From IMG/VR virus record IMGVR_UViG_3300032167_000083, positions 24,662 through 88,661 of that record: a stretch of 64,000 nucleotides of DNA; one strand, given 5' to 3'. Shown in pieces: positions 2,593 to 48,122 of the stretch. Position 1 is the stretch's first letter. Each line of letters begins with the position of its first letter. Both the position numbers and the translations under genes were made by a program. The notes beneath the pieces are model-generated. The model worked only from the letters and a program-made list of their open reading frames with translations, had not been told where the DNA came from and did not search any database. The DNA comes from a virus. Taxonomy: Duplodnaviria > Caudoviricetes.

Positions 2593-2607
2593 TTGATATT
2601 CCTCCTT

Positions 2608-2943
2608 TTATTTTACACTTTTTATTATATAGTTTTTATCCCAATCTGTCAACTCATCAAAGATAACAGTTATCATTGTATCTTCTTCGAATTGTTCTGG
2701 ATTGTCTGTTGTGAAGCTATATAATTTGTCATTAGGATGTCTAATAATAATTGTATTACCTTCAATTGAATGTATTGCACATTCTCTTGTTCTGTTAGAT
2801 TTAACATACAAAGGTGTGATTAATAAAGCTAAAATAGAAATAAATACAATTACCCCAAGTATTCGCTTGTTTCTCCTTTCTCTCTTTTTTCTTTGAACTT
2901 CTCTGAGGAATCTTCTTCCCTCAAATGAATAGTTTTTCTCCAT
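2608..2943 (-). CDS. membrane-anchored protein, paralog of 8199..8594
   Basis: Basic N-terminus + one TM helix + HPN..YxF...EDT domain; RBS before ATG 2943. Confidence 0.7.
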   Translation of the reverse strand: MEKNYSFEGRRFLREVQRKKRERRNKRILGVIVFISILALLITPLYVKSNRTRECAIHSIEGNTIIIRHPNDKLYSFTTDNPEQFEEDTMITVIFDELTDWDKNYIIKSVK

Positions 2944-2968
2944 AACTATTCTCCTTTCGTAAAATATT

Positions 2969-3026
2969 AGAGTGTTGACCACTCAAGTAAAGCTTAATAA
3001 TATTAAACTTGACTTCAATAGTCAAC
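2969..3026 (-). repeat. G.G-mismatch stem-loop + ACTCT motif, copy 1
   Basis: Minus strand GTTGACTATT-G-AAGT...ACTT-G-AGTGGTCAAC-ACTCT. Confidence 0.6.
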
Positions 3027-3730
3027 TGCGGAAATCCAGAAATTTCGCCTATATAGAGTTTTATTTTTAAAAATATTCAGTTTGAAAATATTTTTCTATT
3101 TTTTAATCGCCCTATAACATTAAACCCTCTGGGATTTTCACAAAACCCATACAGTATTTCACAATAAACCATAGGCTGTCTGGGATAAAATGTTTTGTCT
3201 TTCTTTAAAACATTGCCAACATTACCTAACACACCGAGTCCTTCCTGTTCCACTGTACTTTTTCACCTCCTTATCTTATGTACAAGGTGGATTTCCCACA
3301 CCAAATAGTTCTTTGAAGGGTGAACATTTCAATTTCCCATGTAAACAAATTCAAATAATTAACACGCATAGCCTTCCACAACTATGCATATTAATTGTGT
3401 ATTTTTGAATTTGCTGAGATATTATATAATATCTCTTTAAACACATCAGAAATTATTTCTATATTTCTAATATGCTTAAAGAGACACTACATAAGTGCCT
3501 CTTGTTTTTTATTAGTCGAACTTTGTAGCCCAACCACTATCATCTCTTTCTGGATTGTACATTTAAATCACCTCCATATTCTCATCAGAGTATTTTAACT
3601 CTTTTGAGTAATATTCCTCTATTGATATCTTTCCATCAAGATAATCTTTATCTCTTTGAGAAAGTCCATCATAGTCTTTAAGTGATAAATAACAATATAA
3701 TGAATATGCATTCATTTTCAATACATCCTT

Positions 3731-4036
3731 TCATATAGTATAATATTCTTCATTCCAATCATCATTGCAAGCATAATGACTTCTACCTTGTTTCTCTAAA
3801 GAATAAGTACTAACCTTGATTTCTCCACAATGTCCTTCTGTTACAATCTCTGCAACAAAATCCATATATTCTGGATTATCATTATTATACTTATTTTTTA
3901 TAAGCATATGGATATATTTATTTTTGTAAGAAGAATCAACATAATAATAACGTTTTTTATAACCATTAGTTCTCAGCCAACTTTTGATTACTCCCTTTAA
4001 TTCTCTCTTCGTTCTTCTTTCTTCTCTTGTTTTCAT
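3731..4036 (-). CDS. hypothetical protein
   Basis: ORF; GAAAGGA RBS before MKTREE. Confidence 0.65.
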   Translation of the reverse strand: MKTREERRTKRELKGVIKSWLRTNGYKKRYYYVDSSYKNKYIHMLIKNKYNNDNPEYMDFVAEIVTEGHCGEIKVSTYSLEKQGRSHYACNDDWNEEYYTI

Positions 4037-4140
4037 AATATATTTCCTTTCCCCACCAAGCCAATGGTAAATCATTATTCACTTGCTTGTATCTTTTATT
4101 ATTTTTTGTTCGCAAATAATGACTGTTTATTATGAAGTAT

Positions 4141-4225
4141 AGAGTATTAAATACTCAATCGAGAACAAGATAATGTGTTGCTTGTGATGTTATATCTTAC
4201 TCTTGCTCTCTGTTCAGTATTTAAT
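4141..4225 (-). repeat. G.G-mismatch stem-loop + ACTCT motif, copy 2
   Basis: ATTAAATACT-G-AACAGAGAGCAAGA...TCTTGTTCTCGATT-G-AGTATTTAAT-ACTCT. Confidence 0.7.
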
Positions 4226-4406
4226 GATTAATTACACTCATAATACAATACGTTTTTCCATCGGATACTTTTACATAATATGGTCCTGCAAAACTATAAA
4301 ACACTTTTGCGTTCGGAAAAAGTTTTTTGACAGCCAGTTTTGGTGTTCTGGCTTCTACTTCAATAGTAGGACCTTTTTCGTTTTCTAATGTTAATGTAAA
4401 TTTCAT
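4221..4406 (-). CDS. small hypothetical protein (MKFTLTLENEKG...)
   Basis: AAAGGAG RBS before ATG 4406. Confidence 0.6.
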   Translation of the reverse strand: MKFTLTLENEKGPTIEVEARTPKLAVKKLFPNAKVFYSFAGPYYVKVSDGKTYCIMSVINH

Positions 4407-4484
4407 ATCAATTACTCCTTTCTTGACCCTTATACGTATAGGAAGATATGTATTGAAACCCATACAAGAGTTTATTTTTTCTTT

Positions 4485-4565
4485 AGAGTATTAAATACTC
4501 AAAAAGAGAGAGGAACATTTATTCCGCAATTCCGCATTGTTCCTCTCCTATTTTCAGTATTTAAT
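4485..4565 (-). repeat. G.G-mismatch stem-loop + ACTCT motif, copy 3
   Basis: ATTAAATACT-G-AAAATAGGAGAGGAACA...TGTTCCTCTCTCTTTTT-G-AGTATTTAAT-ACTCT. Confidence 0.7.
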
Positions 4566-5386
4566 TATTTAACTGACAATAATTCAAAAAGAGTATTGGC
4601 TTTTTCAAAATCATTACCTTTATATATTACTCCTTTATTTTCAAGCAATACCTCTACTTCTGAAATTTTTCCTTTTCCATCATCAGATATCGAAAAGATA
4701 TAGATTAATGCTATGTATTCATTTTCGTTTGTTTTACCAAACCTATCCATACTTGCGGCTTGTACGAACAAAGAATGTTCTTCATCTGTTATATAGTCTA
4801 TTGGATAGCATTTTCCTTCAATTACTCTGTATTCACCTTTGTACCCATCTGTCAACATGAACTCTTGATATAAACTACCATCTTCATCAACATGCCATTC
4901 AAATGGATCTGGAGAATACATATCTCGCATCATAGCTTCTTCATTGTCGTCTATACGTTTCTTTGAACGTATTCCGTTGCCACCATTATATAAGCGTTCC
5001 CAACGGATATCTCTTCCTGCTGTTTTGCTCTTGCCGTAATTGAGGTAATCTTTACCTCTTATGTTTCGAGATTTGTGAAAAATATTTGCTTTACGTGTTC
5101 TTCTTCTGGCTTCTTTATTTGGATTAACAAATAATTCATTATCCAGAAGGTTATCTTCTTCTTCAAACAGCATCATTATTTCATATGCTTTGAAATCATC
5201 ATACAAATCTCCGAAAAGACTCGCTTCATCGATGCCACTTAAATTTGTTTCTAATTCCTCAAGTCTTGAGGTTTTTTCTGTTTCTTTTTTGTTGTTTTCT
5301 ACAACAAGTTCCTCCACTGCTGCCTCAAATAAAGCTTTATCAAAAGCTTCTTCTGCTTTCAGCAATGCTTTTTCTAATGTTGTCAT
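4565..5386 (-). CDS. hypothetical early protein (acidic N-terminus, basic middle)
   Basis: 273 aa, GAAAGGA RBS. Confidence 0.8.
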   Translation of the reverse strand: MTTLEKALLKAEEAFDKALFEAAVEELVVENNKKETEKTSRLEELETNLSGIDEASLFGDLYDDFKAYEIMMLFEEEDNLLDNELFVNPNKEARRRTRKANIFHKSRNIRGKDYLNYGKSKTAGRDIRWERLYNGGNGIRSKKRIDDNEEAMMRDMYSPDPFEWHVDEDGSLYQEFMLTDGYKGEYRVIEGKCYPIDYITDEEHSLFVQAASMDRFGKTNENEYIALIYIFSISDDGKGKISEVEVLLENKGVIYKGNDFEKANTLFELLSVK

Positions 5387-5488
5387 ATTAAATCATTCCT
5401 TTCGTTTAACTTATGTACCCATCTCATAAGACTACACCTATGACACTGAGCTATGCTCAAAATGTAGTTTTGTAATTATATCAGGTAT

Positions 5489-5550
5489 AGAGTAATTTAA
5501 TACTCAAGCAAGCACACGATAAAGCTCGTATGCTTAATCAGTATTAAATT
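5489..5550 (-). repeat. G.G-mismatch stem-loop + ACTCT motif, copy 4
   Basis: AATTTAATACT-G-ATTAAGCA...TGCTTGCTT-G-AGTATTAAATT-ACTCT. Confidence 0.7.
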
Positions 5551-5725
5551 GTAATCAAGAATATCAAGTCGCTTTAGGTAAAAATGAGACAACTCAGCAA
5601 TATCTGAGGTGGTTGCTCCGTCTTTGCTAAAGATATTCTCTAAAGGAATATATCCTCTTTAAATCACACAATAAAACTCGTATGATTTAAGGAAGAGGGT
5701 TCAAGCTGAACCCATTCCTGTTTTA

Positions 5726-6631
5726 TTATCTTTTTAATAACCAATCTGAAATTGATAATACTTTTTTGTTGGTTGATTGACCTGAATTAACAGTTAACCA
5801 TCTCTGGTATTCTAATTCACCATAATGATTAACAATATAATCAACAGCAGCACCTAATGTGCTGAATCTCTCTGCCCAAAGAGTGTTACTGTCACTCTTT
5901 TCGAACCAATACAAATCAACTTTATCTGTGTTTGGATAACACAATATAACAGCAGGCTCTGTATTTGTCCACCCAAACCCTATCGCTTTAAAACATTTTG
6001 AGATATTGTATCTCATCATATTTAAACGATATTCCATTTCTTGTGCCTTTTCCAAGCTGTTAAATTTTTGTTCTTGAAGTACTGGAGCAAAAGGAACATT
6101 AAGTTTGTAACTCTTTTCAATAAGAGCATACATCTCTTCCTCATTGCCCAAATCATCATAGACAGTTGTTTTACCATCTAATTTAATTTCCTCTGTAATC
6201 GTATTAGAAATCTTATTGATGATAACAGGACGATTATCTGACTTCAATAACTCAGAGAGCTTTTTAGCAGCTTCTTCAGCTTCTTTGATAAGCTCATCTG
6301 TTGTCCATTTATGTCCATCAGAGGCATAATTGAATGTCATATAATCTCCATAATGAGCATAATCCCATCCAATCCATACTCCATCAGGATGATAATCTAA
6401 CTTACCATTAAAAGTAAGTCCACCATGTACATCTAATGGAATCTCATCATAATGAGTATTCTCATATTTAGTACCCTTAACATTGAGGTAAGTACATGGA
6501 TGTGTTCCAAGATTAAGAATAATCCATTCTACATCATCTGTAGTTCCTGTAGCTAAAGGTCCTACATATCTGGTTTCTCTGCTGTAGTTCATTTCTACAA
6601 TCTTGTGTGTTCTGTTCATGTTCTTTTTCAT
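5726..6631 (-). CDS. conserved-looking phage protein of unknown function (HPCxY...VHGGLTF...WIGWDYAH domain)
   Basis: His/Cys-rich N-terminal motif set; RBS before MKKNMN. Confidence 0.75.
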   Translation of the reverse strand: MKKNMNRTHKIVEMNYSRETRYVGPLATGTTDDVEWIILNLGTHPCTYLNVKGTKYENTHYDEIPLDVHGGLTFNGKLDYHPDGVWIGWDYAHYGDYMTFNYASDGHKWTTDELIKEAEEAAKKLSELLKSDNRPVIINKISNTITEEIKLDGKTTVYDDLGNEEEMYALIEKSYKLNVPFAPVLQEQKFNSLEKAQEMEYRLNMMRYNISKCFKAIGFGWTNTEPAVILCYPNTDKVDLYWFEKSDSNTLWAERFSTLGAAVDYIVNHYGELEYQRWLTVNSGQSTNKKVLSISDWLLKR

Positions 6632-6765
6632 AGCTTTAACCTTTCCCTCACCTATCCAATGAGTCAACTCTAACCATGCAGCTCTTTGAGCACTTGATAG
6701 TTTATAATATATTTACTCACCATCAGAGTCGTTTGCTATAAATGTCCGAAATTTGTTGCCAATGA

Positions 6766-6822
6766 TGTCTGTTTCGGCTCATGCCATCATCAGGTCCTGG
6801 ACTTTTACCAGAACGACAGACA
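6766..6822 (-). ncRNA. hammerhead ribozyme, type III
   Basis: UGUCUGUC^GUUCUGG-uaaaagu-CCAGGAC-CUGAUGA-u-GGC-auga-GCC-GAA-ACAGACA; all three stems and the core are present. Confidence 0.9.
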
Positions 6823-6850
6823 AGAGGAGTTGTTTCACTCCTCTTTTTGT

Positions 6851-7018
6851 TTAACTTATCATTGCTATGGCTGATAGTATCCATATTGATGCAAATGATA
6901 CTCCGACAAAAGAGAGTAATTCAAAAAATATTTTTATATTTTCTCTCTTTTCGGCTTTTCTTTTTTCTTGTCTTGCGACAAATTCTTCTCTTGTTGATGG
7001 TGTTGTTCTTTTTTTCAT
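6851..7018 (-). CDS. small membrane protein (basic N-terminus, C-terminal TM helix)
   Basis: GGAAGGA RBS; hydrophobic C-terminus. Confidence 0.6.
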   Translation of the reverse strand: MKKRTTPSTREEFVARQEKRKAEKRENIKIFFELLSFVGVSFASIWILSAIAMIS

Positions 7019-7319
7019 AATTATTCCTTCCTTTCCACACATCAGTAAAACCCAGAAAAAGTTCCTATATAGTAAAGATTTATATGAACTTTACACTTCT
7101 GAGTTTTACTACTTCTACCCATTTCGCCCCACAGTCTAAAACTTTTATAGGAGCTTAAGAAAAGCTCAAAAGATTACTAAGAAAGTAATCAATTTACTAC
7201 TAAAATAAGTAGTTATGTACTTAAGATAAGCACTACTTCTCTTAACCTATATTACACTAATATAGGATTTAATGAAGGTTTTTCGTTCAAGGGGATAACC
7301 TACAACCCCATTTTACCTC

Positions 7320-7691
7320 CTATTGAGGAGCAACTACCAAGCATCCTAATGATGCATAATAATTGGTATCAACATCAACTTCACCATCACAATAAATTAA
7401 TGGCTCAATTGTTGTGTATTCATCTTCATATGATGCTATTCTTGAACCATAACAACATACTACTTTTAGATGAATATTACTACCAATCATATTTGATAGC
7501 TCCTCAAGAGTATATTCCTCATCATCAAGAAGAATATATCCATCTTCTGTTCCATGACAAAACATAAGTAAGCCATGAGAAGATGAATTAACTACTGCAA
7601 AGTCAGCTTGATCAAGACCAACTCTACAAACGTCATTGAATTCTTCTTGATTTATAAAGATATACTCTTTGGTACTTACACTATTAATCAT
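7320..7691 (-). CDS. acidic protein with a possible His-Cys protease dyad
   Basis: LLMFCHG ... LKVVCCYG; GGGAGG RBS. Confidence 0.6.
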   Translation of the reverse strand: MINSVSTKEYIFINQEEFNDVCRVGLDQADFAVVNSSSHGLLMFCHGTEDGYILLDDEEYTLEELSNMIGSNIHLKVVCCYGSRIASYEDEYTTIEPLIYCDGEVDVDTNYYASLGCLVVAPQ

Positions 7692-7878
7692 AGTGAATAC
7701 CTCCCTTCTGTTGTCATATCCAAAGGTTCCGACTATAGCGACAACTACTATAACCTTGCTTATATGCTCAAGACATATAAGACTAAAGGAAATCTCTTTC
7801 CTTTTACTAAACTCTATATAAAATTAACTATATAAAGTTTAATAAAAGAAAAGAGACTCATTTCTGAGCCTCATTCCT

Positions 7879-8091
7879 TTAATAAATTTCATTCCTGATA
7901 ATATCATCAGGAGTGTATTTTTTTGTAAGGAGAGCAAATTTTATAACGAATATGAAATCTGGCTCTGTTTTCCCATTTTCATAGCTCGACAAAGTCGCTC
8001 TTGTGATACCTAAAGCATCGGCAAGTTCTTGTTGAGTAAAACCAATTTTCTTTCGGGCATTTTTTATTCCGTTTGCAATATCGTATGCCAT
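7879..8091 (-). CDS. XRE-family helix-turn-helix regulator
   Basis: IKNARKKIGFTQQELADALGITRATLSSYENGKTEP. Confidence 0.92.
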   Translation of the reverse strand: MAYDIANGIKNARKKIGFTQQELADALGITRATLSSYENGKTEPDFIFVIKFALLTKKYTPDDIIRNEIY

Positions 8092-8198
8092 ATTTTTTCC
8101 TCCTATAAGTATTTTTACCTGTAAAGCTTGTTTGTGTATCACCAATTACGATTAACTAACCCGATACACTTAGATTAGTTAAAAGTTGAACATCAATT

Positions 8199-8594
8199 TT
8201 ACTCGTTAATATCTTTGATACTTACAAGCTTAAGTTCCTGTTCTAATACAGGCTTTTCGACATCTTCTATAGAAACAAGATTTTGTTCTAATACAGGCTT
8301 TTCAACATCTTCTATAGATTTTAAAACTTCTTTTGGATTTCCTGAATTAACAGTATAATCCTCTTTGTTAAGCTTTAATTCATTAAAAGATACTTTTATT
8401 ATAGTATCTTCTTTGTATAGATTACTATCATAAGCAAAGAAATCATAGTATTCTCCATTTGGATGAAGTACTGTAACTACTTTATCAGCTTCTTGAATAA
8501 CTCTACAATTTCTAACTGTATGAGCTTTACTATAGGCTGTATAACCCAATGTCATTACTACTACTAACCCTGCAACCAATAAACCTTTTTTCAT
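8199..8594 (-). CDS. membrane-anchored/secreted protein, paralog of 2608..2943
   Basis: N-terminal hydrophobic helix, HPNG.YYDF..KEDT, duplicated SIEDVEKPVLEQ. Confidence 0.7.
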   Translation of the reverse strand: MKKGLLVAGLVVVMTLGYTAYSKAHTVRNCRVIQEADKVVTVLHPNGEYYDFFAYDSNLYKEDTIIKVSFNELKLNKEDYTVNSGNPKEVLKSIEDVEKPVLEQNLVSIEDVEKPVLEQELKLVSIKDINE

Positions 8595-8660
8595 AACTTT
8601 CTCCTCAGCTCTTGATACTATCTCCACTGACCTCATCTTGAGGATTTAAATATTTTTATT

Positions 8661-8729
8661 TTTCTCCACTCTGCATTTACAAGGGCTTGTGACCTTCTAT
8701 ACTCGTCAATATAGGCTGCATTAGAGAAA
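8661..8729 (-). ncRNA. twister ribozyme (type P1)
   Basis: UUUCUCU^AA-UGCA-GC-CUAUA..UAUAG-AAGG-UCACAAGC-CCUU-GUAAA-UGCA-GAG-UGGAGAAA matches the twister consensus architecture. Confidence 0.88.
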
Positions 8730-8749
8730 GGGAGTTTTAACTCCCTTTT

Positions 8750-9034
8750 TTATTCGAAAGATACACTTTCAAGGAATTTTTTATATTCCTCTTCTTGTAT
8801 TTTTTCCAGTTCTTCTTTTATGTTCGGTTCTTCTTCGAACATTTCATAGGTTATGTCTTTTGCCCAATTTTCAAGAACTTTCATTCTTGTTTCTTCGTCA
8901 GCTTTTAAAAAAGCTTCGAATATAAAATTAAACAACTCGGTATCCATTTCGAATACTTGATATTGTTCTGGGCTTTCTACAACTATGTTAGTTGTATTTT
9001 TAATCTTGTTGTCTGTGATTGTAAATTCTTTCAT
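8750..9034 (-). CDS. acidic hypothetical protein
   Basis: GAAAGGA RBS before MKEFTI. Confidence 0.65.
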   Translation of the reverse strand: MKEFTITDNKIKNTTNIVVESPEQYQVFEMDTELFNFIFEAFLKADEETRMKVLENWAKDITYEMFEEEPNIKEELEKIQEEEYKKFLESVSFE

Positions 9035-9529
9035 GATTTTTCCTTTCTTGCCTTTTCGGGCTGACAACTTTCACATTTAATTAGGATAAGATGTCAAGCT
9101 TACCTACCTCATCTTTTGTGAGGATTTAATTAATGAATACGTTAAAGTCGTTTCATTTATTCGACTTTACATATTCATTCATTTTTTTTATACATATCAT
9201 ATAATATCCAGTCTATTTCCAAAACTGAAAATTCTGAAAAAAATTTTTTTACCCACCAGAAACCCTACCTTTTCTCCCACTCCACAATTTTAAACAAAAA
9301 AAGAGAGATTGCAAAACACAACCCCTCCAAAAAGAAACATAGACAAATCATCTTTCAAACCTCTCTCACATTCAAATCTTAATCTTTTTCAAACAATCCA
9401 ACACCAAATCCTCACCAACTCCATCTATCCATCAACTTATATTATCAACTCCAAAAAATCGATTCTACGTCTCTATCATTCAAAAAACTCTAATAAACAA
9501 AAATGAGATGAATAAATCATCTCAAAAAA

Positions 9530-9560
9530 AAAGAGAGATTACCAAAGTAACCTCTCTTAA
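9530..9560. terminator. intrinsic terminator (probably of the minus-strand operon ending at 9629)
   Basis: AAGAGAGATTAC/GTAACCTCTCTT inverted repeat next to a long A-run. Confidence 0.55.
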
Positions 9561-9628
9561 TAAATTTATTTATATAATTTACGAATGAACTTACATTATT
9601 CACTTCGTTCACAGATGAACTCACATTA

Positions 9629-12689: not shown

Positions 12690-13259
12690 TTAAATATTTT
12701 CTTTTAATTCTTTTAAAAAATTATTTTTTATTTTTTCATTATTGATAATAGTATCTCTAACTTTCATTAAAGTAAATCCTAATAAATTCAAACCCTTCCA
12801 ATTGGTAGGATTTTTTATTTTACCATTATCATTTTCTATACTTAATCCAATACCCCAAATTTTATCATAAGGAGAAGCTTCAACTAATATTCTATCTTTT
12901 GTTGAAATAATATAATTTCTTAAAATTTCATTTTGAGTGAACTTTGCAAGATTACCTGTAAATACAATATTTTCTTTATTTAAATCCCAAAGTGCCTGAT
13001 TAAAATTTTTTATTTTTCTGCCAAATGATTTAATTTCTTTTTGATTATCACTCAACATAATCTTTTTTAATATTTCATTATCTTGAAATAGTCGAGCTTT
13101 TTCAGCCATCATATATTGTTCTACACACCAATACGTTATATTGTCTATTGTGAATTCAATAGGATACCAGTTAGATAAATATGACCTGCTATGCCAAAAG
13201 AATAAAAAGTCAAAATTTTCTCCTTCATTATATCTTTTACATAATTCTTTTTTATCCAT
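12690..13259 (-). CDS. NADAR (YbiA/DUF1768) family hydrolase
   Basis: LSNWY...EQYMMAEKARLF.D...KFTQN...LVEASPYDKIWGIG...W.G.NLLG..LM.VR. Confidence 0.92.
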   Translation of the reverse strand: MDKKELCKRYNEGENFDFLFFWHSRSYLSNWYPIEFTIDNITYWCVEQYMMAEKARLFQDNEILKKIMLSDNQKEIKSFGRKIKNFNQALWDLNKENIVFTGNLAKFTQNEILRNYIISTKDRILVEASPYDKIWGIGLSIENDNGKIKNPTNWKGLNLLGFTLMKVRDTIINNEKIKNNFLKELKENI

Positions 13260-16314: not shown

Positions 16315-16343
16315 ATTATAACATAGAATTTTATAAATGTCAA
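16315..16343 (-). promoter_or_regulatory. sigmaA promoter
   Basis: TTGACA-17-TATAAT with TG. Confidence 0.8.
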
Positions 16344-18362: not shown

Positions 18363-20377
18363 ATGCCCAATAGATTATTTTATACAGCTAAGTTAAAGAG
18401 TAGTTTTATTATTGAGAATCACTGTGATATACATAAAAATTTCTATGAACTACTTATGGCAAATAATATAATTTCATTAGCTGATTCTCAAATGTTGAGA
18501 ACTATTCGACAATTAACAAATCATGAAATTGATTTGGAAAAATTGGAAGATTGGTATCGGGAACGAGATATTATTAAAAGACGAAAAAATTCTAAAGAAA
18601 ACAAAGAACGAATAAGACAATTACAAAATAATATTTATAACATGATGTTTATACCCGAATATATCACTGTGGTGATAGAAAAAGAAAAAGATTATGATTT
18701 ATTCTTTAAAAGAGGATTTAAATTTAATGGTGATAAATATACGAGATTGTCTTGCTCTGCTTCTCAGGCAAGAGTAAATACTGTTGTTTTTATAAAAGAT
18801 GAACTTAAACAACAAATGCAGGATATTCTTAATAATGGACGAAAGATGGATAAGCCGATGGCTCCAAGTAAATTTAATGCTTATTTTGGGTTGTATTCAT
18901 CTGCTACAAAACAAGTAACATATCCAAGATTTTGTATTATTCCAGATTATTGTGAGATGGATAGAGTTAAGGTTGATTTTGTAACTACTACAGATGATTT
19001 CTCTGATGATATTCTTGATGAAAGAACTATTGATGTGGAGTTTAATCGTTTTGATGGAAATGGATTAATTAGTCCTCAAATGGCTGAACAATGGAGTATA
19101 GATATTGGTATTTATAATCCTAATGCAGAAAATGAAGATGATAAAGGATATATTGCTTGTCAATTTTGTATTAGACAAAGTTTTACAAAAGGCATGTTAT
19201 GTACTTTTGATTTTCTTAAATTTTGTAAGGAAAAGAATAATGAAAATTATATTATTAAAGATGTTTATGGACATAATGTTGATTTAAGAGAGATTGATGT
19301 TATTCTTACTGAAGGACAAGTTAAAATGTTCGATCATTTTGGATATGAAAAAGATGGTGAATGGATTCCATCTCAAGAAGTCTTTGAAAATAATATTAAG
19401 AAAAATAATTTATTTTGGGGTGTGACTCGTTTTACACCTGAACAAGATGATAGAGTTCTTATTACCAATTATCAATTTTTACAAACCTTAAAAATGACAG
19501 ATGAAGATATAGAAGAATTATGTCAAGATACTGTTAATTATTTTAAGGGTGTTTGTTCTGGAGATTATAATTATGCGTTATTGTTTATGCTTGGAGATAG
19601 TATGAATGAGAGAAAGATGCAGAATTATATGAAATCCAGTGATAATTATTGGTTAAAAAGTTTAATATGCAATCCTAATTTATTCAATGATAAATATACA
19701 AAGCAAAAGATTAAAGATTGTATTGAAAGAAGAATAGAACAGGCTTGTATAGGAAAAATTTTGGTTGAAGGAAATTTTCAGGTTCTTATTCCAGACAGTT
19801 ATGCTTTTATGGAGTGGTGTTGTTATAGAGATCCAATGAAAGTAAAAGGTTTATTAAAAGCAGGACAATGCTATAGTAAATTTTGGAAAGACAAAGATAA
19901 ACATAAAATTTTATCACAAAGGTCTCCATTAACTCATTTTAGTGAATGTCATTTAATGGATGTAGTTTGGAATGATGATATTGATGAATGGTTTAAATAT
20001 AGTTATACTGGATTTTATACAAATATACATGATGAAAGTGTTATGCTTTGGTCTGGTGCAGATTTTGACTATGATATTTGTGCGAGTACATCTAATCCAG
20101 TAATGATTAGATGTGTTTATAAAAACCAGAAACCAGTAACATATGATGTTCCTAAACCAAAGAAAATGTTATTTACAGAAACAGATTTATATAATTTTGA
20201 TAAAAAAAGTTTTGGTTCTTTAATAGGTCCTCTTACGAATCATGGAACAAGTATTATATCTTTAATTTCATATTATAGAGATAGATATAATAAATATCAT
20301 GATGAACTTGATTTAAGAAAGTTAAGATTATTAGAAGATAGATTAAAGATGGTATGTGCAGGTCAGTCAAGACAGAT
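18363..20377 (+). CDS. yonO: YonO-like single-subunit (two-barrel) RNA polymerase, exon 1
   Basis: SASQAR, K..AY.GL..S, FDGNGLI, QFCIR..FTKG, QRSP, GADFDYD, IGPLTN motifs; SPbeta-like position upstream of HU and terminase. Confidence 0.85.
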
Positions 20378-21698
20378 GAAATATTGTCTGCGTATATGGT
20401 AACATATATGAAAAATTAGTGGTGAACCTATAAATATAGGGTGTATAATTTACGGTAAGGAATCGTAGGAAATGACGATTAGAAATTATGCTAACAGGGG
20501 ATTCTAAGGATTTTTATTAATCTATGAAAATCCTGTGGTAAGCTATTTTTTGGTGGTTGTAAAAATTAAAAAGGAGGTGAAAAAGGGTAAAATGAAAGAA
20601 GGATATAGACCTCATAATTTTATTGATAGAACGAATATGAGATTTGGAAAATTAGTATGTCAAGAATATTTAGGACAAGGAAAATGGAAATGTTTGTGTG
20701 ATTGTGGAAACACACATATTGTAAAAGGTGATGATTTACCTGTGAATAGTAAAAAAAGAGGAGTTAAGTCTTGTGGGTGTGGGCATTTAAGTAAAACTTG
20801 TCCTGATATTAATTATTTTAAAAACATTAATACTTCTGAAAAAGCATACATACTTGGATTATTAGCATCTGATGGAAATATTTATAATTATAATAATAGT
20901 TATTATGCTACGATTAGATTAAAATATACAGATGTAGATATCTTAGAAAAAGTAAAAAAAACTATGAATATAACTTCAAAAATCACATATCAAGAAGAAA
21001 ATGTTGTTTTCCCACAAGGTAATCAAGGTATTGCTAAGATGTGTTGTTTAAGGATTTATGGAAAAGAAATTATTAATGATTTAATTTCGTATGGTTTAGT
21101 TCCAAATAAAACATTACATTTGAAAGTTGATTATAAAAAAATACCAAAAGAATTCGTAAGAGATTATTTAAGAGGATTATGGGATGGAGATGGAACTTTT
21201 GGTTTTTATGAACGACAAAATAATTCTCATACATATGAAGTTCATTATATTGGCTCTTCTGAAATAGTTAATGATATTAAAGATATTATCTTAGAAAATT
21301 TTCCACATTACAAAATTGATACTTGGCATGCTAAAGAATGTAATGAAAATATTTTTAGATTAGGGTTATCTCGTAGAGATGATTGTATAGAATTTTTAAA
21401 TTTTTTATACAAAGATGCTAATATATATTTAGATAGAAAATATCAGAAGTATATTGATTGTATAGATTTAGTTAAATCTATTCCTTTTAAAAAATCACCA
21501 TGTAGAAATTAGAAACTTAATCGACTATCCCAAATGGAGGTGGAATTCCTCAATAGGAGTAGGGGAGAGGTGAAAATCCTTTCTGGGTGAAACCCCCTTA
21601 AATCGAAGTGCCACAATCCTAATTATTTAGGATTAAGATATAGTCAAAACCGACTCATATGAGTGTTAAAGTACTATGAAAATAGCGGTATGTAAATG
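20378..21698 (+). mobile_element. group I self-splicing intron
   Basis: 5' exon ends in U, intron ends in G; core elements GCTAACAGGG..AATCCTGTGGTAAGC, CGACTAT and GATATAGTC (P7); splicing restores Q-I-D-K-T-K-I-G in frame. Confidence 0.88.
20592..21512 (+). CDS. intron-encoded LAGLIDADG homing endonuclease with a Cys-rich N-terminal module
   Basis: AYILGLLASDG and YLRGLWDGDG; N-terminal RFGKLV..WKCLCDCGN..KSCGC. Confidence 0.88.
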   Translation: MKEGYRPHNFIDRTNMRFGKLVCQEYLGQGKWKCLCDCGNTHIVKGDDLPVNSKKRGVKSCGCGHLSKTCPDINYFKNINTSEKAYILGLLASDGNIYNYNNSYYATIRLKYTDVDILEKVKKTMNITSKITYQEENVVFPQGNQGIAKMCCLRIYGKEIINDLISYGLVPNKTLHLKVDYKKIPKEFVRDYLRGLWDGDGTFGFYERQNNSHTYEVHYIGSSEIVNDIKDIILENFPHYKIDTWHAKECNENIFRLGLSRRDDCIEFLNFLYKDANIYLDRKYQKYIDCIDLVKSIPFKKSPCRN

Positions 21699-22572
21699 AG
21701 ATAAAACAAAAATTGGACAAGAAGTAAAAGCAATAGCTAAAATATGGAAAACATTTCGTCCAATAAAAGAGACTGACACAGAACAAGAAAGAGAAGAAAA
21801 AGAGTTTTATAATTCTATTCTTTCAGATAGAAAACCATACTTTTTTAAGTATTTATATAAAGATTGTAAAACAACCTATAATACAGCTTATAAAAGTTTT
21901 GATAAAGAGTCTCGTAGGAGATATGGAATAACATTAAAAGAATTAATGAATATAGAAAATATAACAGAGGAACAAGAGAAATTAATTAATCATTTTATTT
22001 CAGAAACAAGACTTATTATGTCTGACTGTGAAATGAATAGATTATGTAAACATATAGAAAATGCTAATTTTGAAATTAAATTAAATATAAGAGATGATTC
22101 TAAATTTGATTATATGTATTTTTTTGATGAAAATATTGAATGGAAACAAGAAACATATGAGAAAATTTTTGAATTAATGAAAATGTTTAGTTTAAGTAAA
22201 AAATCTAATAAACTTGCTAATTCTTTAAGAGAAAATCAGAAAATAGGAGTCAAATCTGATAACGAAGTAACTAATGGTAAGAAGCTTGAAATAGAAGTAA
22301 TGAGAAACAGATTGCTTGAAGAAGGGACTTCAGATAGTCGTGAGTTATGTAATTATCTTTTGAAGATTTTTTATGAAGATAAGAGAAGTTGGGATAAAGG
22401 ATTGTTGTGGAAATTAGTTGGAGATATTTTATATGAACGTTGTTTTAATAAAAGTAATGGAAATATAAGAGTTCCTGTTTTAGATAATGATGGAGATATT
22501 ATTTTTTATAATGATAAATTTAGTGTAAGAGATGTGAATATAAATAAAGATGAGGAAGTGAACCCATGCTAA
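21699..22572 (+). CDS. yonO: YonO-like RNA polymerase, exon 2 (spliced product 962 aa)
   Basis: Same frame as track ORF 21946..22572; (I)DKTKIG...RKPYFFKYLY. Confidence 0.85.
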
Positions 22573-46521: not shown

Positions 46522-47070
46522 ATGGCTAATAATTTAGGAAAAGTTTTTGAAAGAAACTTTGGAGATTCATCTAAGAAGGATGGGTTTTTTACATATAGAA
46601 TAAAGGATACAGATTTATCTTTTAATGGAAATTCTGTGTCTTCTTTTACTCATACGAATTTATGCGATTATTTTATTTTTGCTAATGTTATCAATGGTTT
46701 AGGTAATTTATTTTGTATAGAATGTAAAAGCACAAAATATTCTTCTATATCAATTGAAACAGAACCTGAAAAGAATGAAAATAAGATGATTAAGGCTCAT
46801 CAATTAGAGGGACTTATTGAAGTTTCTTTAAATGATGGTATGTATGGTGGTTTTGTATTGAATTTTAGAGATGAAGAAAAAAATACTGAAGAAACTTATT
46901 ATATGAGTGCAAAAGATATGAGTATTTTTTTAGATGAAACTCATAAGAAATCTATTAATAAATTAGATTGCAAGTTAAGAGGAATTAAAATTAATCAAAA
47001 ATTAAAAAGAAAATATTATGATTATGATGTAAAAACATTAATAGATGATATCGTGAAGAAAGGAGATTGA
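46522..47070 (+). CDS. recU: RecU-like Holliday junction resolvase
   Basis: N.GK.FE, CDY, IECKST, IK.HQ motifs. Confidence 0.8.
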   Translation: MANNLGKVFERNFGDSSKKDGFFTYRIKDTDLSFNGNSVSSFTHTNLCDYFIFANVINGLGNLFCIECKSTKYSSISIETEPEKNENKMIKAHQLEGLIEVSLNDGMYGGFVLNFRDEEKNTEETYYMSAKDMSIFLDETHKKSINKLDCKLRGIKINQKLKRKYYDYDVKTLIDDIVKKGD

Positions 47071-48122
47071 TTGGAGTGGCAAGAAAAACATATAGAAAAA
47101 AGATTACAGATCCAGAGGTGTTAGAACAAATAAATCCGAAAAATATTAAATTAATGAATTTATTTATAAAAGATAAAGATAGAAAATGTAGTGATGCTAC
47201 TATAAAGGTTTATAAATCTAATTTAAATATATTTTTTTGTTGGAATGTATTATATAATGATAATAAATATTATCCAGATATAAAAAAAGTTGAGTTAAGT
47301 GAATTTTTTGATTTTTTAGTAAATGATTTAAAAATACAAGGAAAAAGATTTTCTCATCATAGATCAACTTTGAGTGGTTTATCTGATATAGTTATAAAAT
47401 ATTATGATGAAGATTATCCTTCTTTTAGAAATTTTGTTAATACTATTATAGAGCCAATTCCAAAAGATGCAGTTAGAGAAAAAACAATTTTAAGTGATGA
47501 AGAAGTTGATTTAATTTTTGAAGTTTTACAACAACAAAATAAAATACAAGAGTTGTGTTGTTTTGCATTAGCTTTATATTCTGGAGCTAGAATTGCAGAA
47601 TTAGAACAATTTACAGTAGATATGATTGATAGGGAGAAGAGTTTATCTTTTGGTGGAGTTGCTTTGCAGACAACAAAAAAAATTAGAACTAAAGGTTTTG
47701 GAAAACAAGGAAAAGTCATGCACAAACATATTGTCAAAGATTTATTTCTTCCTTATTTTGATACGTGGGTAGCGGAAAGAAAAAAGATAATTGAAGATTT
47801 AGGTGTTGAAGATCATGGTTTTTTGTTTATAAAAAACAATGGAAAAAAAGCAACGCAAACTGTAATACGAAATTGGGCAGAAAAATGGAGTAAAATAGTT
47901 GACAAACCCATATATTTACATTGTCTAAGGCATAATTTGTGTAGTTATTTTACGAAATTAGGACTAGGAAGGGATTTTATAATTGCTTTCTTCGGTTGGA
48001 GCACAGCAGAGATGTATGATATCTACAATGATTGCGAAAATGAAGATTTAGAATGGAAAGATGCTGCAAAATTACAAAGTATAATAGATAATAAATTACA
48101 AGAAGATGATTATGATGATTAA
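47067..48122 (+). CDS. tyrosine recombinase/integrase family protein
   Basis: SGARIAEL, TKG, HCLRH, GWS...Y catalytic residues. Confidence 0.88.
   Translation: MIGVARKTYRKKITDPEVLEQINPKNIKLMNLFIKDKDRKCSDATIKVYKSNLNIFFCWNVLYNDNKYYPDIKKVELSEFFDFLVNDLKIQGKRFSHHRSTLSGLSDIVIKYYDEDYPSFRNFVNTIIEPIPKDAVREKTILSDEEVDLIFEVLQQQNKIQELCCFALALYSGARIAELEQFTVDMIDREKSLSFGGVALQTTKKIRTKGFGKQGKVMHKHIVKDLFLPYFDTWVAERKKIIEDLGVEDHGFLFIKNNGKKATQTVIRNWAEKWSKIVDKPIYLHCLRHNLCSYFTKLGLGRDFIIAFFGWSTAEMYDIYNDCENEDLEWKDAAKLQSIIDNKLQEDDYDD

Follow-up and report, generated by a model that had tools for sequence, protein, structure and literature searches.

Intercistronic hairpins in an uncultured phage: candidate RNA-processing sites at gene-cassette junctions

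Introduction

The early messenger RNA of phage T7 carries the RNase III processing signals R0.3-R1.3. Here we describe hairpins that may play a comparable part in an uncultured gut phage. The DNA analysed is a stretch of 64,000 bases (hereafter the window) comprising bases 24662-88661 of one virus record (88,661 bases; CheckV completeness estimate 58%). The element in question occurs in four copies on the minus strand of the window, each a long irregular hairpin with a G.G mismatch and a conserved ACUCUA tail; a fifth copy lies in G001, a 117-kb relative that was retrieved whole and compared with the present phage (G000).

RNase III cuts RNA of phage SP82 in Bacillus, as recounted in a passage of PMC4838370 that cites Panganiban and Whiteley (1983). 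In working principle, the RNase III sites of T7 early mRNA and of SP82 appear to be the closest described relatives of the window hairpins. In both cases there are several irregular hairpins of about two helical turns between early cistrons, with conserved bases around an internal irregularity, and the 3' arm would stay on the downstream message. The differences are equally clear: the window hairpins are known from sequence and their cleavage is a prediction; their sequence is unrelated and matches no Rfam model; their 3' arm can refold with a conserved tail; and their slots alternatively hold self-cleaving ribozymes.

In evolutionary behaviour, the nearest parallel appears to be the PeSL cassettes of T4-type phages, described in two papers as a strong sigma-70 promoter joined to a terminating stem-loop (PMC2839356; PMC4122927). 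Like PeSL elements, the window hairpins are repeated intergenic motifs in a hyperplastic block of ORFans, reaching from an upstream stop codon towards the next Shine-Dalgarno sequence, and they bound indels and gene replacements between relatives. Unlike PeSL elements, they have no shared promoter register and no strong sigma-70-type promoter within the motif, four of the five lack a U tract, their hairpins are of far greater length, and their phage probably infects a Firmicute.

Ribozymes associated with phage genes have been suggested, in the part of PMC6765202 that discusses them, to process polycistronic transcripts; the same source describes the role of many self-cleaving ribozymes near phage genes as still open. 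The window hairpins share an operon with such ribozymes (twister, pistol and hammerhead) and are interchangeable with them ahead of homologous genes in two phages, but they have a plain fold, match no ribozyme model and, if they are cut at all, would probably depend on a protein. Integron attC sites, as generally described, offer a further likeness: each cassette is followed by an imperfect hairpin that is conserved at its base, contains an unpaired base and varies at its top, and the recombination joint falls at the 3' foot of the window hairpin. However, the attC cores R'' and R' are absent, no integron-type integrase was found, and one strain deletion lies beside a lone twister.

Results

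Four hairpins built on one plan

An initial annotation of this locus had described the four minus-strand elements as a candidate new RNA motif with a basal stem of 10-11 bp, a G.G mismatch, a variable upper stem and an ACUCU tail. All four were recovered (Table 1), and RNAfold returns this architecture in each of them. Every copy folds as a single long hairpin that none of 200 dinucleotide shuffles per copy can match. The minimum-free-energy folds contain 22-28 pairs. Above the basal stem stands the G.G mismatch, in the context YU-G-A ... U-G-AGU between a U-A and an A-U pair, and a helix of 1-4 bp then leads to a second irregularity and the upper stem. The upper stems (9-11 bp) are unrelated in sequence among the copies, and the loops range from 3 to 30 nt. 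ACTCTA follows immediately 3' of the stem in all four copies, so that the 3' end reads TTGAGT...ACTCTA; about 17 nucleotides are conserved around the internal mismatch and the 3' tail.

Within this plan the copies differ in detail. Copy 1 has the basal stem GUUGACUAUU/AGUGGUCAAC (with two G.U pairs), the G.G mismatch, 4 bp, a C.U mismatch, a 9-bp upper stem and the tail ACUCUA; the ATG of the next gene is at 2943. Copy 2 has the basal stem AUUAAAUACU/AGUAUUUAAU, the G.G mismatch, a 10-bp upper stem with a 30-nt loop and the tail ACUCUAUAC, and its 5' arm contains the stop codon of ORF (open reading frame) 4221-4463. Copy 3, which has the same basal stem as copy 2 and an upper stem of 11 bp, begins at the final base of the stop codon of ORF 4565-5386. 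Copy 4 pairs AAUUUAAUACU with AGUAUUAAAUU in an 11-bp basal stem, followed by the G.G mismatch, an 11-bp upper stem and the tail ACUCUAUAC; an extended -10-like sequence, TGATATAAT, lies downstream, and strain variants occur at 5541 and 5525. All copies are located between ORFs. The upstream stop codon is at or overlaps the start of the element in three of the five copies (G001 included) and lies 0 to 175 nt away overall, and the next start codon is 25 to about 104 nt away.

Table 1. Positions of the hairpins, ribozymes and accompanying features (dG, folding free energy; bits for copies 1-4, scores with covariance model R1; positions are those of the window except where L004 or L007 is given, which refer to G001)
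Feature	Position	Strand	Remarks
Copy 1	2969..3026	(-)	dG -24.8 kcal/mol, z -6.47; 65.4 bits
Copy 2	4141..4225	(-)	dG -23.9 kcal/mol, z -4.94; 80.1 bits
Copy 3	4485..4565	(-)	dG -30.8 kcal/mol, z -7.02; 81.2 bits
Copy 4	5489..5550	(-)	dG -25.4 kcal/mol, z -6.84; 63.0 bits
Copy 1 short hairpin, GAGUG-GUCAA-CACUC	2970..2984	(-)	-6.8 kcal/mol; re-uses 3' arm of long hairpin
Copy 2 short hairpin, GAGUAU-UUA-AUACUC	4142..4156	(-)	-4.4 kcal/mol
Copy 3 short hairpin, GAGUAU-UUA-AUACUC	4486..4500	(-)	-4.4 kcal/mol
Copy 4 short hairpin, GAGUA-UUAAAU-UACUC	5490..5505	(-)	-5.0 kcal/mol
TACTCTATAC, tail of copy 2	4137..4146	(-)	identical 10-mer at 5485-5494 (copy 4)
Twister-P1 ribozyme	8663..8727	(-)	67.0 bits (gathering 67.2), E 1.4e-13; ahead of gene 8199-8594
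Type III hammerhead candidate	6766..6822	(-)	Hammerhead_3 20.6 bits, E 3.1; core read by eye
Pistol ribozyme (G001)	L004 3911-3972 = L007 527-588	(-)	59.6 bits (cut-off 34.5); between two small early genes
Long intercistronic duplex, about 32 bp	3416..3501	(-)	dG -40.4, z -8.49; same architecture, other sequence
Long intercistronic hairpin, about 28-32 bp	7770..7878	(-)	dG -44.8, z -7.57; ahead of gene 7320-7691
Leader hairpin	5410-5434, 7759-7785; L004 about 5976-6000	(-)	20-60 nt ahead of ribosome sites, unrelated genes
Split YonO-like region	18363-20402, 20535-21512, 21946-22572	(+)	G001: single 969-aa ORF, L004 9992-12901

The repeat is structured, strand-specific and outside Rfam

We compared the number of copies with chance using a descriptor that demands a stem of at least 8 pairs, in the form 5' arm + GA ... 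TG + 3' arm, and an ACTCT tail. It has four matches in the 88,661-base genome and a mean of 0.02 (maximum 1) in 100 first-order Markov simulations. When the tail is dropped there are six matches against 3.6 expected, so the two additional, tail-less matches are at chance level. A genome-wide sliding RNAfold scan for hairpins of at least 20 pairs returned 99 hits on one strand and 106 on the other, and was set aside because it does not discriminate in this A+T-rich genome.

The basal stems had been reported to covary, and they do: in an alignment of the five copies 98.2% of cells are paired and three of the 11 pairs are changed on both sides, whereas sliding the partner by 1-3 columns lowers basal pairing to 31-43%. 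Copy 3 is the orthologue of the G001 copy. Their arms and tail are nearly identical. Two pairs of the upper stem have changed in a compensatory way (C-G to U-A and A-U to G-C), and the apical loop differs in length, being shortened to GAAA in G001. Moreover, the minus strand folds better than the plus strand in all five copies (by 1.3-13.3 kcal/mol), each copy has one to three G.U pairs, and the strain variant at 5541 turns a C-G into a U-G pair. This strand preference, the G.U pairs and the variant argue that the long hairpin is selected on the sense (minus) strand, as fits an RNA.

No Rfam 15 family matches the 64-kb window at gathering level, and permissive filters applied to the elements return nothing other than microRNA-precursor noise (21-25 bits against cut-offs of 87-103). 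The element is thus a structured, strand-specific repeat without an Rfam family, in keeping with its initial description as a candidate new motif.

Full copies were found in two phage records

A covariance model built from the copies had been suggested as a check. Our model, R1, made from the four window copies and the G001 copy, recovers these five training copies, and only these, in the 207 kb of G000 and G001 together (best unrelated match 16.6 bits, E 3.2). None of the five GenBank relatives searched whole has a copy at E <=0.5; Bacillus phage BUCT082 gave the best value, 0.575. The only related phage record found was G001, which shows 75% polymerase identity and has one full motif copy.

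Other searches gave a similar picture. The exact 19-mer of the 3' end has three chance matches in viral_contigs, all without the upstream stem, and a two-gap motif pattern has one chance match in metagenome_contigs, on a G+C-rich insertion-sequence contig, and none in genome_contigs. Neither megablast nor blastn of the region matched a GenBank phage. The 273-aa protein encoded next to copy 3 and a NADAR-domain protein of the block have no relatives in viral_contigs, and an alignment search with gene 8199-8594 found only G001 in viral_contigs and nothing in genome_contigs. A partial trace of the motif, a motif-like 3' end, is present on a contig of run X8. With five full copies in two phage records and this trace, the family is real but narrow.

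A short alternative hairpin can re-use the 3' arm

It had been proposed that the 3' ACUC pairs with the GAGU of the stem in a mutually exclusive hairpin. This hairpin is real and, at 5-6 bp, longer than first claimed (Table 1). In G001 it reads GAGUAU-UUAAUU-AUACUC, keeping its 6-bp stem despite a 3-nt insertion, and in copy 1 the fifth pair is changed from A-U to G-C. The term switch, as used in the initial annotation, holds in the sense that an exclusive 3' hairpin exists, but not in the sense of an equilibrium, the short form being about 20 kcal/mol weaker than the long one. For this reason the short hairpin is expected to form only once the 5' arm has been removed or occupied.

The 3' G of the G.G mismatch is the first base of the short hairpin, and in the G001 copy the 5' G is part of the UGA with which the upstream ORF actually ends. 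The mismatch may reflect two constraints, one from the stop codon and one from the start of the short hairpin.

The combination of a long hairpin with a short GAG...CUC hairpin that overlaps or adjoins it is also found with other sequences, at the long duplex 3416-3501 of the window and at three more sites in G001. The 3' end of the 3416-3501 duplex can alternatively form GAGAUAUUAUAUAAUAUCUC (3416-3435).

Hairpins and ribozymes occupy equivalent slots

The hairpins belong to a minus-strand block of about 35 kb of small genes, nearly all of them ORFans, which runs leftward from a promoter at 16343. These genes are mostly tightly packed. Long gaps occur only in the stretch from about 2600 to 9600, and they contain the four hairpins, the long hairpins 3416-3501 and 7770-7878, a twister-P1 ribozyme and a weak hammerhead. 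Two recognisable ribozymes had been noted in this block and strand; the twister-P1 is a near-cutoff match, and the hammerhead, weak by score, has a core that is readable by eye.

This core consists of GUCUGUC (expected to be cleaved after C), a stem I of 7 bp, CUGAUGA carrying an additional U, a stem II of 3 bp and GAAAC, and the candidate lies directly after a G+C-rich hairpin that trails the stop codon of ORF 6851-7018.

Comparison with G001 connects the two kinds of element. Gene 8199-8594 is preceded by the twister in the present phage. In G001, the hairpin motif and its leader stand ahead of the homologous gene (68% identical), and nucleotide homology between the two genes starts at the ATG. 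Similarly, gene 7320-7691 follows the long hairpin 7770-7878 here, and its 31%-identical homologue in G001 follows the pistol ribozyme. The hairpins thus share one kind of intercistronic slot with the twister, pistol and hammerhead ribozymes. Ribozyme models applied to the hairpin elements themselves gave no match at E up to 5, in the same search that detected twister-P1 and Hammerhead_3 nearby.

Gene cassettes are joined at the tails

Strain variation, seen in DNA contigs from other samples, places joints at these elements. In one contig of run X10, position 4136 is followed directly by 5485; the joint falls within the TACTCTATAC that copies 2 and 4 share, and 1348 bases with two complete gene modules are missing. 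A second X10 contig lacks 8192-8663, a deletion that begins at the 3' edge of the twister. The X8 contig carries the motif-like 3' end followed by the leader of copy 2 and then by a homologue of gene 8199-8594. Moreover, G001 nowhere contains a homologue of either ORF that flanks copy 3 (273 and 61 aa), yet it keeps the hairpin and its trailing leader. The elements are most likely recombination junctions of swappable gene cassettes, a point absent from the initial annotation. Homologous exchange would take place at the conserved stem bases and tails, because these are found again and again between unrelated ORFs.

Discussion

We tentatively favour the view that the hairpins are intercistronic RNA processing or stability elements, cut by an RNase III-type enzyme, which double as PeSL-like recombination junctions. 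Their structure, strand specificity and compensatory changes, the equivalence of their slots with those of ribozymes and the cassette junctions at their tails are seen directly. They resemble RNase III signals in being irregular, in having at least 20 pairs and in lying between cistrons that are presumably co-transcribed. They resemble PeSL elements in position, being intergenic, in a hyperplastic ORFan region and at the bounds of indels between relatives.

On this view the elements would punctuate a leftward, probably early, multi-gene transcript. The sense-strand fold, an irregular duplex of some 22-28 pairs, would be cut close to the G.G mismatch, or to the internal loop that immediately surmounts it, by an endonuclease specific for double-stranded RNA, most simply the RNase III of the host. 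The upstream message would be left with a hairpin at its end, and the freed 3' arm and ACUC tail could refold into the short GAG...CUC hairpin at the new 5' end and so cap the downstream message. The hairpins and a host enzyme would thereby do what the neighbouring twister, hammerhead and pistol ribozymes do unaided, and single-gene cassettes would be gained, lost and swapped at the hairpins, as at the PeSL elements of T4-type phages. The initial annotation had offered an RNA processing site, an RNA switch or a hairpin signal for a virion RNA polymerase; the processing site best fits the slots, the strand and the want of a terminator or promoter register, and the polymerase signal finds no support.

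Several points weigh against this account. Transcription through the elements, the cleavage, the enzyme and the refolding are steps that we infer. Bacillus RNase III is characterized as a narrow-specificity enzyme in the portion of PMC4838370 that deals with it. The record, at an estimated completeness of 58%, contains no recognizable phage-encoded RNase III or dsRNA-binding domain. The family is tiny, with four window copies, one full G001 copy and a partial trace in one run, and the identity between copies could come largely from recent duplication or gene conversion instead of selection. At -4.4 to -6.8 kcal/mol the short hairpin has little stability, and its covariation amounts to a single change, from A-U to G-C in copy 1, together with the one 3-nt insertion in G001 that leaves it intact. 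Slot equivalence is based on a single relative, and the two strain joints each come from one low-depth contig (depth 4.1 and 2.7), as does the X8 arrangement.

An uncut hairpin is the alternative that survives best, although we consider it unlikely. In this case the elements would be passive insulators or stabilisers, blocking exonucleases or uncoupling translation. Alternatively, they would be bound by a phage-encoded RNA-binding protein or dedicated endonuclease, which would recognise the conserved UGA/UGAG mismatch together with the GAG...CUC hairpin. Evidence from structure and strand serves this explanation as well as it serves processing. Three of the five copies start at or overlap the upstream stop codon, the conserved YUGA, UUGAGU and ACUCUA exceed what an enzyme specific for double-stranded RNA would need, and most of the surrounding genes are ORFans that could encode a binding protein. 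Yet no candidate protein was identified, the variable distances to start and stop codons leave no fixed translational geometry, and equivalence with three classes of self-cutting RNA points to cutting and not to mere folding.

Somewhat less probable again is a role in DNA alone, with the repeated palindromes as recombination sites or selfish insertions of a PeSL-, MITE- or attC-like kind (MITE, miniature inverted-repeat transposable element) that shuffle ORF cassettes and have no RNA function. The X10 joint exactly within a sequence common to copies 2 and 4, the precise replacement of ORFs between conserved linkers, and the conserved stem bases and variable tops, reminiscent of attC sites as generally described, speak for such a role, and the record encodes a tyrosine recombinase (47067-48122), its only one. 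But selection for folding of one strand is evident from the compensatory changes in the upper stem and from the G.U pairs, to which A.C corresponds on the opposite strand. The deletion at the 3' edge of the twister, the sole one that Rfam detects in G000 and G001, implies that the repeats are not required. The recombinase is generic: it scores 47 bits with the integron-type model, whose cut-off is 220, and falls far below every curated cut-off. The stem feet read ATTAAATACT/AGTATTTAAT or GTTGACTATT/AGTGGTCAAC, without the R'' and R' core sites of the attC consensus as commonly given. Target-site duplication is not visible and the cores differ between copies, observations on which a MITE was also rejected.

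A combined promoter and terminator is improbable. The short GAG...CUC hairpin and ACTCTA would then be a start signal for a YonO-like enzyme, a phage sigma factor or an injected polymerase, and the long hairpin would stop upstream transcription. Three strong intrinsic terminators stand in succession upstream, at 9302-9558 (-) within the leftward block, so the genes from about 9000 to 2600 depend on read-through or on a new or unrecognised promoter. The promoters of the N4 virion polymerase have a stem of 5-7 bp and a 3-nt loop, and two of the five short hairpins combine a 6-bp stem with such a loop; in the others the loop has 5-6 nt. Variation of the loop from 3 to 6 nt counts against a start signal. 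Copy 1, alone among the copies, overlaps a sigma-70-like site (10 of 12 positions), and TGATATAAT follows copy 4, but the copies share no -35/-10 register, the spacing from TTGAGT to a -10-like hexamer differing in every one.

Nor do the long hairpins look like terminators. A consensus scan for intrinsic terminators flagged none of the four, and picked out only the short alternative hairpin of copy 1; four of the five long hairpins have no U tract; the tails read ACUCUAUAC, ACUCUAAAG and ACUCUAAUA. Ribozymes in equivalent slots function only within read-through transcripts. The 3224-aa open-ended ORF, a giant that might have supplied a virion polymerase, matches no Pfam or PHROG family and shows no polymerase domain. 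The only recognisable phage polymerase is YonO-like and encoded on the opposite strand to the hairpins, and the motif is absent from the plus-strand block that holds the YonO-like and virion genes. In the account of YonO in PMC5467207 its promoter is described as unknown, a point in favour of this reading, and YonO is said to transcribe the late genes of SPbeta, a point against it.

The idea that the G.G hairpin and ACUCUA tail form a self-acting or phage-enzyme-specific cutting module is a long shot. If it were true, this would be a new and very small class of self-cleaving or self-refolding RNA, interchangeable with twister, pistol and hammerhead ribozymes, and early transcripts would be cut into hairpin-capped single-gene messages. 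Least credible of all is that the hairpin element is itself a new self-cleaving RNA: its place in ribozyme slots, its conserved nucleotides around the internal mismatch and 3' tail and its lack of an Rfam match would agree with this, but the plain hairpin shows no sign of a junction, a pseudoknot or a large conserved internal loop, most of the conserved bases are in Watson-Crick pairs, and the family consists of very few, closely related copies. Self-cleavage of such a fold looks unlikely.

Returning to the putative processing hairpins, what is new here is a narrow motif outside Rfam; phage intercistronic elements of this general sort are already known. The presence of plain hairpins and three ribozyme classes in equivalent slots of two phages suggests the idea that both punctuate the early transcript into separately stabilised messages. 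As marks of single-ORF exchange joints, the elements would carry the PeSL idea of mobile regulatory cassettes beyond T4-type coliphages, into an uncultured gut phage that has a YonO-like polymerase. Given how narrow the motif is, its value is as an example and not as a widespread RNA family.

Other features of the locus

Other identities were tried for the elements and rejected. A kink-turn would need a register shift that breaks the basal stem; a palindromic operator for a dimeric repressor is at odds with half-site spacing that varies over 15-18 bp; and pairing of ACUCU as an anti-Shine-Dalgarno sequence fits just two of the four downstream ribosome sites.

The genome contains perfect TTGACA-17-TATAAT promoters and strong AGGAG ribosome sites, which indicate that the host is probably a Firmicute. 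Past the terminators at 9302-9558 lies a stretch that is kept in G001 and has a TTGACA without a canonical -10. Within the minus-strand block there is also a perfect plus-strand promoter, TTGACA-17-TGnTATAAT, at 1496-1559, followed by a hairpin; it possibly gives rise to an antisense RNA.

A second repeated hairpin is found in leaders of the block (Table 1). It starts UAGUCUUA, and its stem covaries: CUUAUG/CAUAAG here, CUUACG/CGUAAG in G001 and CUUAUAUG/CAUAUAAG at 7759-7785. A pattern search beyond the present phage found it in G001 only.

The gene behind copy 1 (2608-2943, minus strand) is a paralogue of the gene behind the twister (8199-8594, minus strand; 29% identity in alignment A5), and both products resemble single-pass membrane proteins. 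The NADAR-domain protein is encoded among the early genes at 12690-13259 (-) (Pfam E 7e-50). In runs X7 and X9, contig depth at 3059-3094 and 6923-6974 rises 5-30x above the surroundings, with many loose ends; these stretches seem to be common to many other genomes in the samples.

The YonO-like single-subunit RNA polymerase gene (18363-20402, plus strand; Pfam RdRP, E 1.6e-12) has tblastn identities of 42% to Bacillus phage BUCT082, about 31% to Enterocloster phages and about 26% to SPbeta-like phages. It is split into ORFs of 679 and 208 aa, both assigned to PHROG 8308, with an HNH endonuclease ORF in between. No group I or group II intron was found at the split at Rfam gathering level; the interruption could be an intron or the insertion of a free-standing homing endonuclease.

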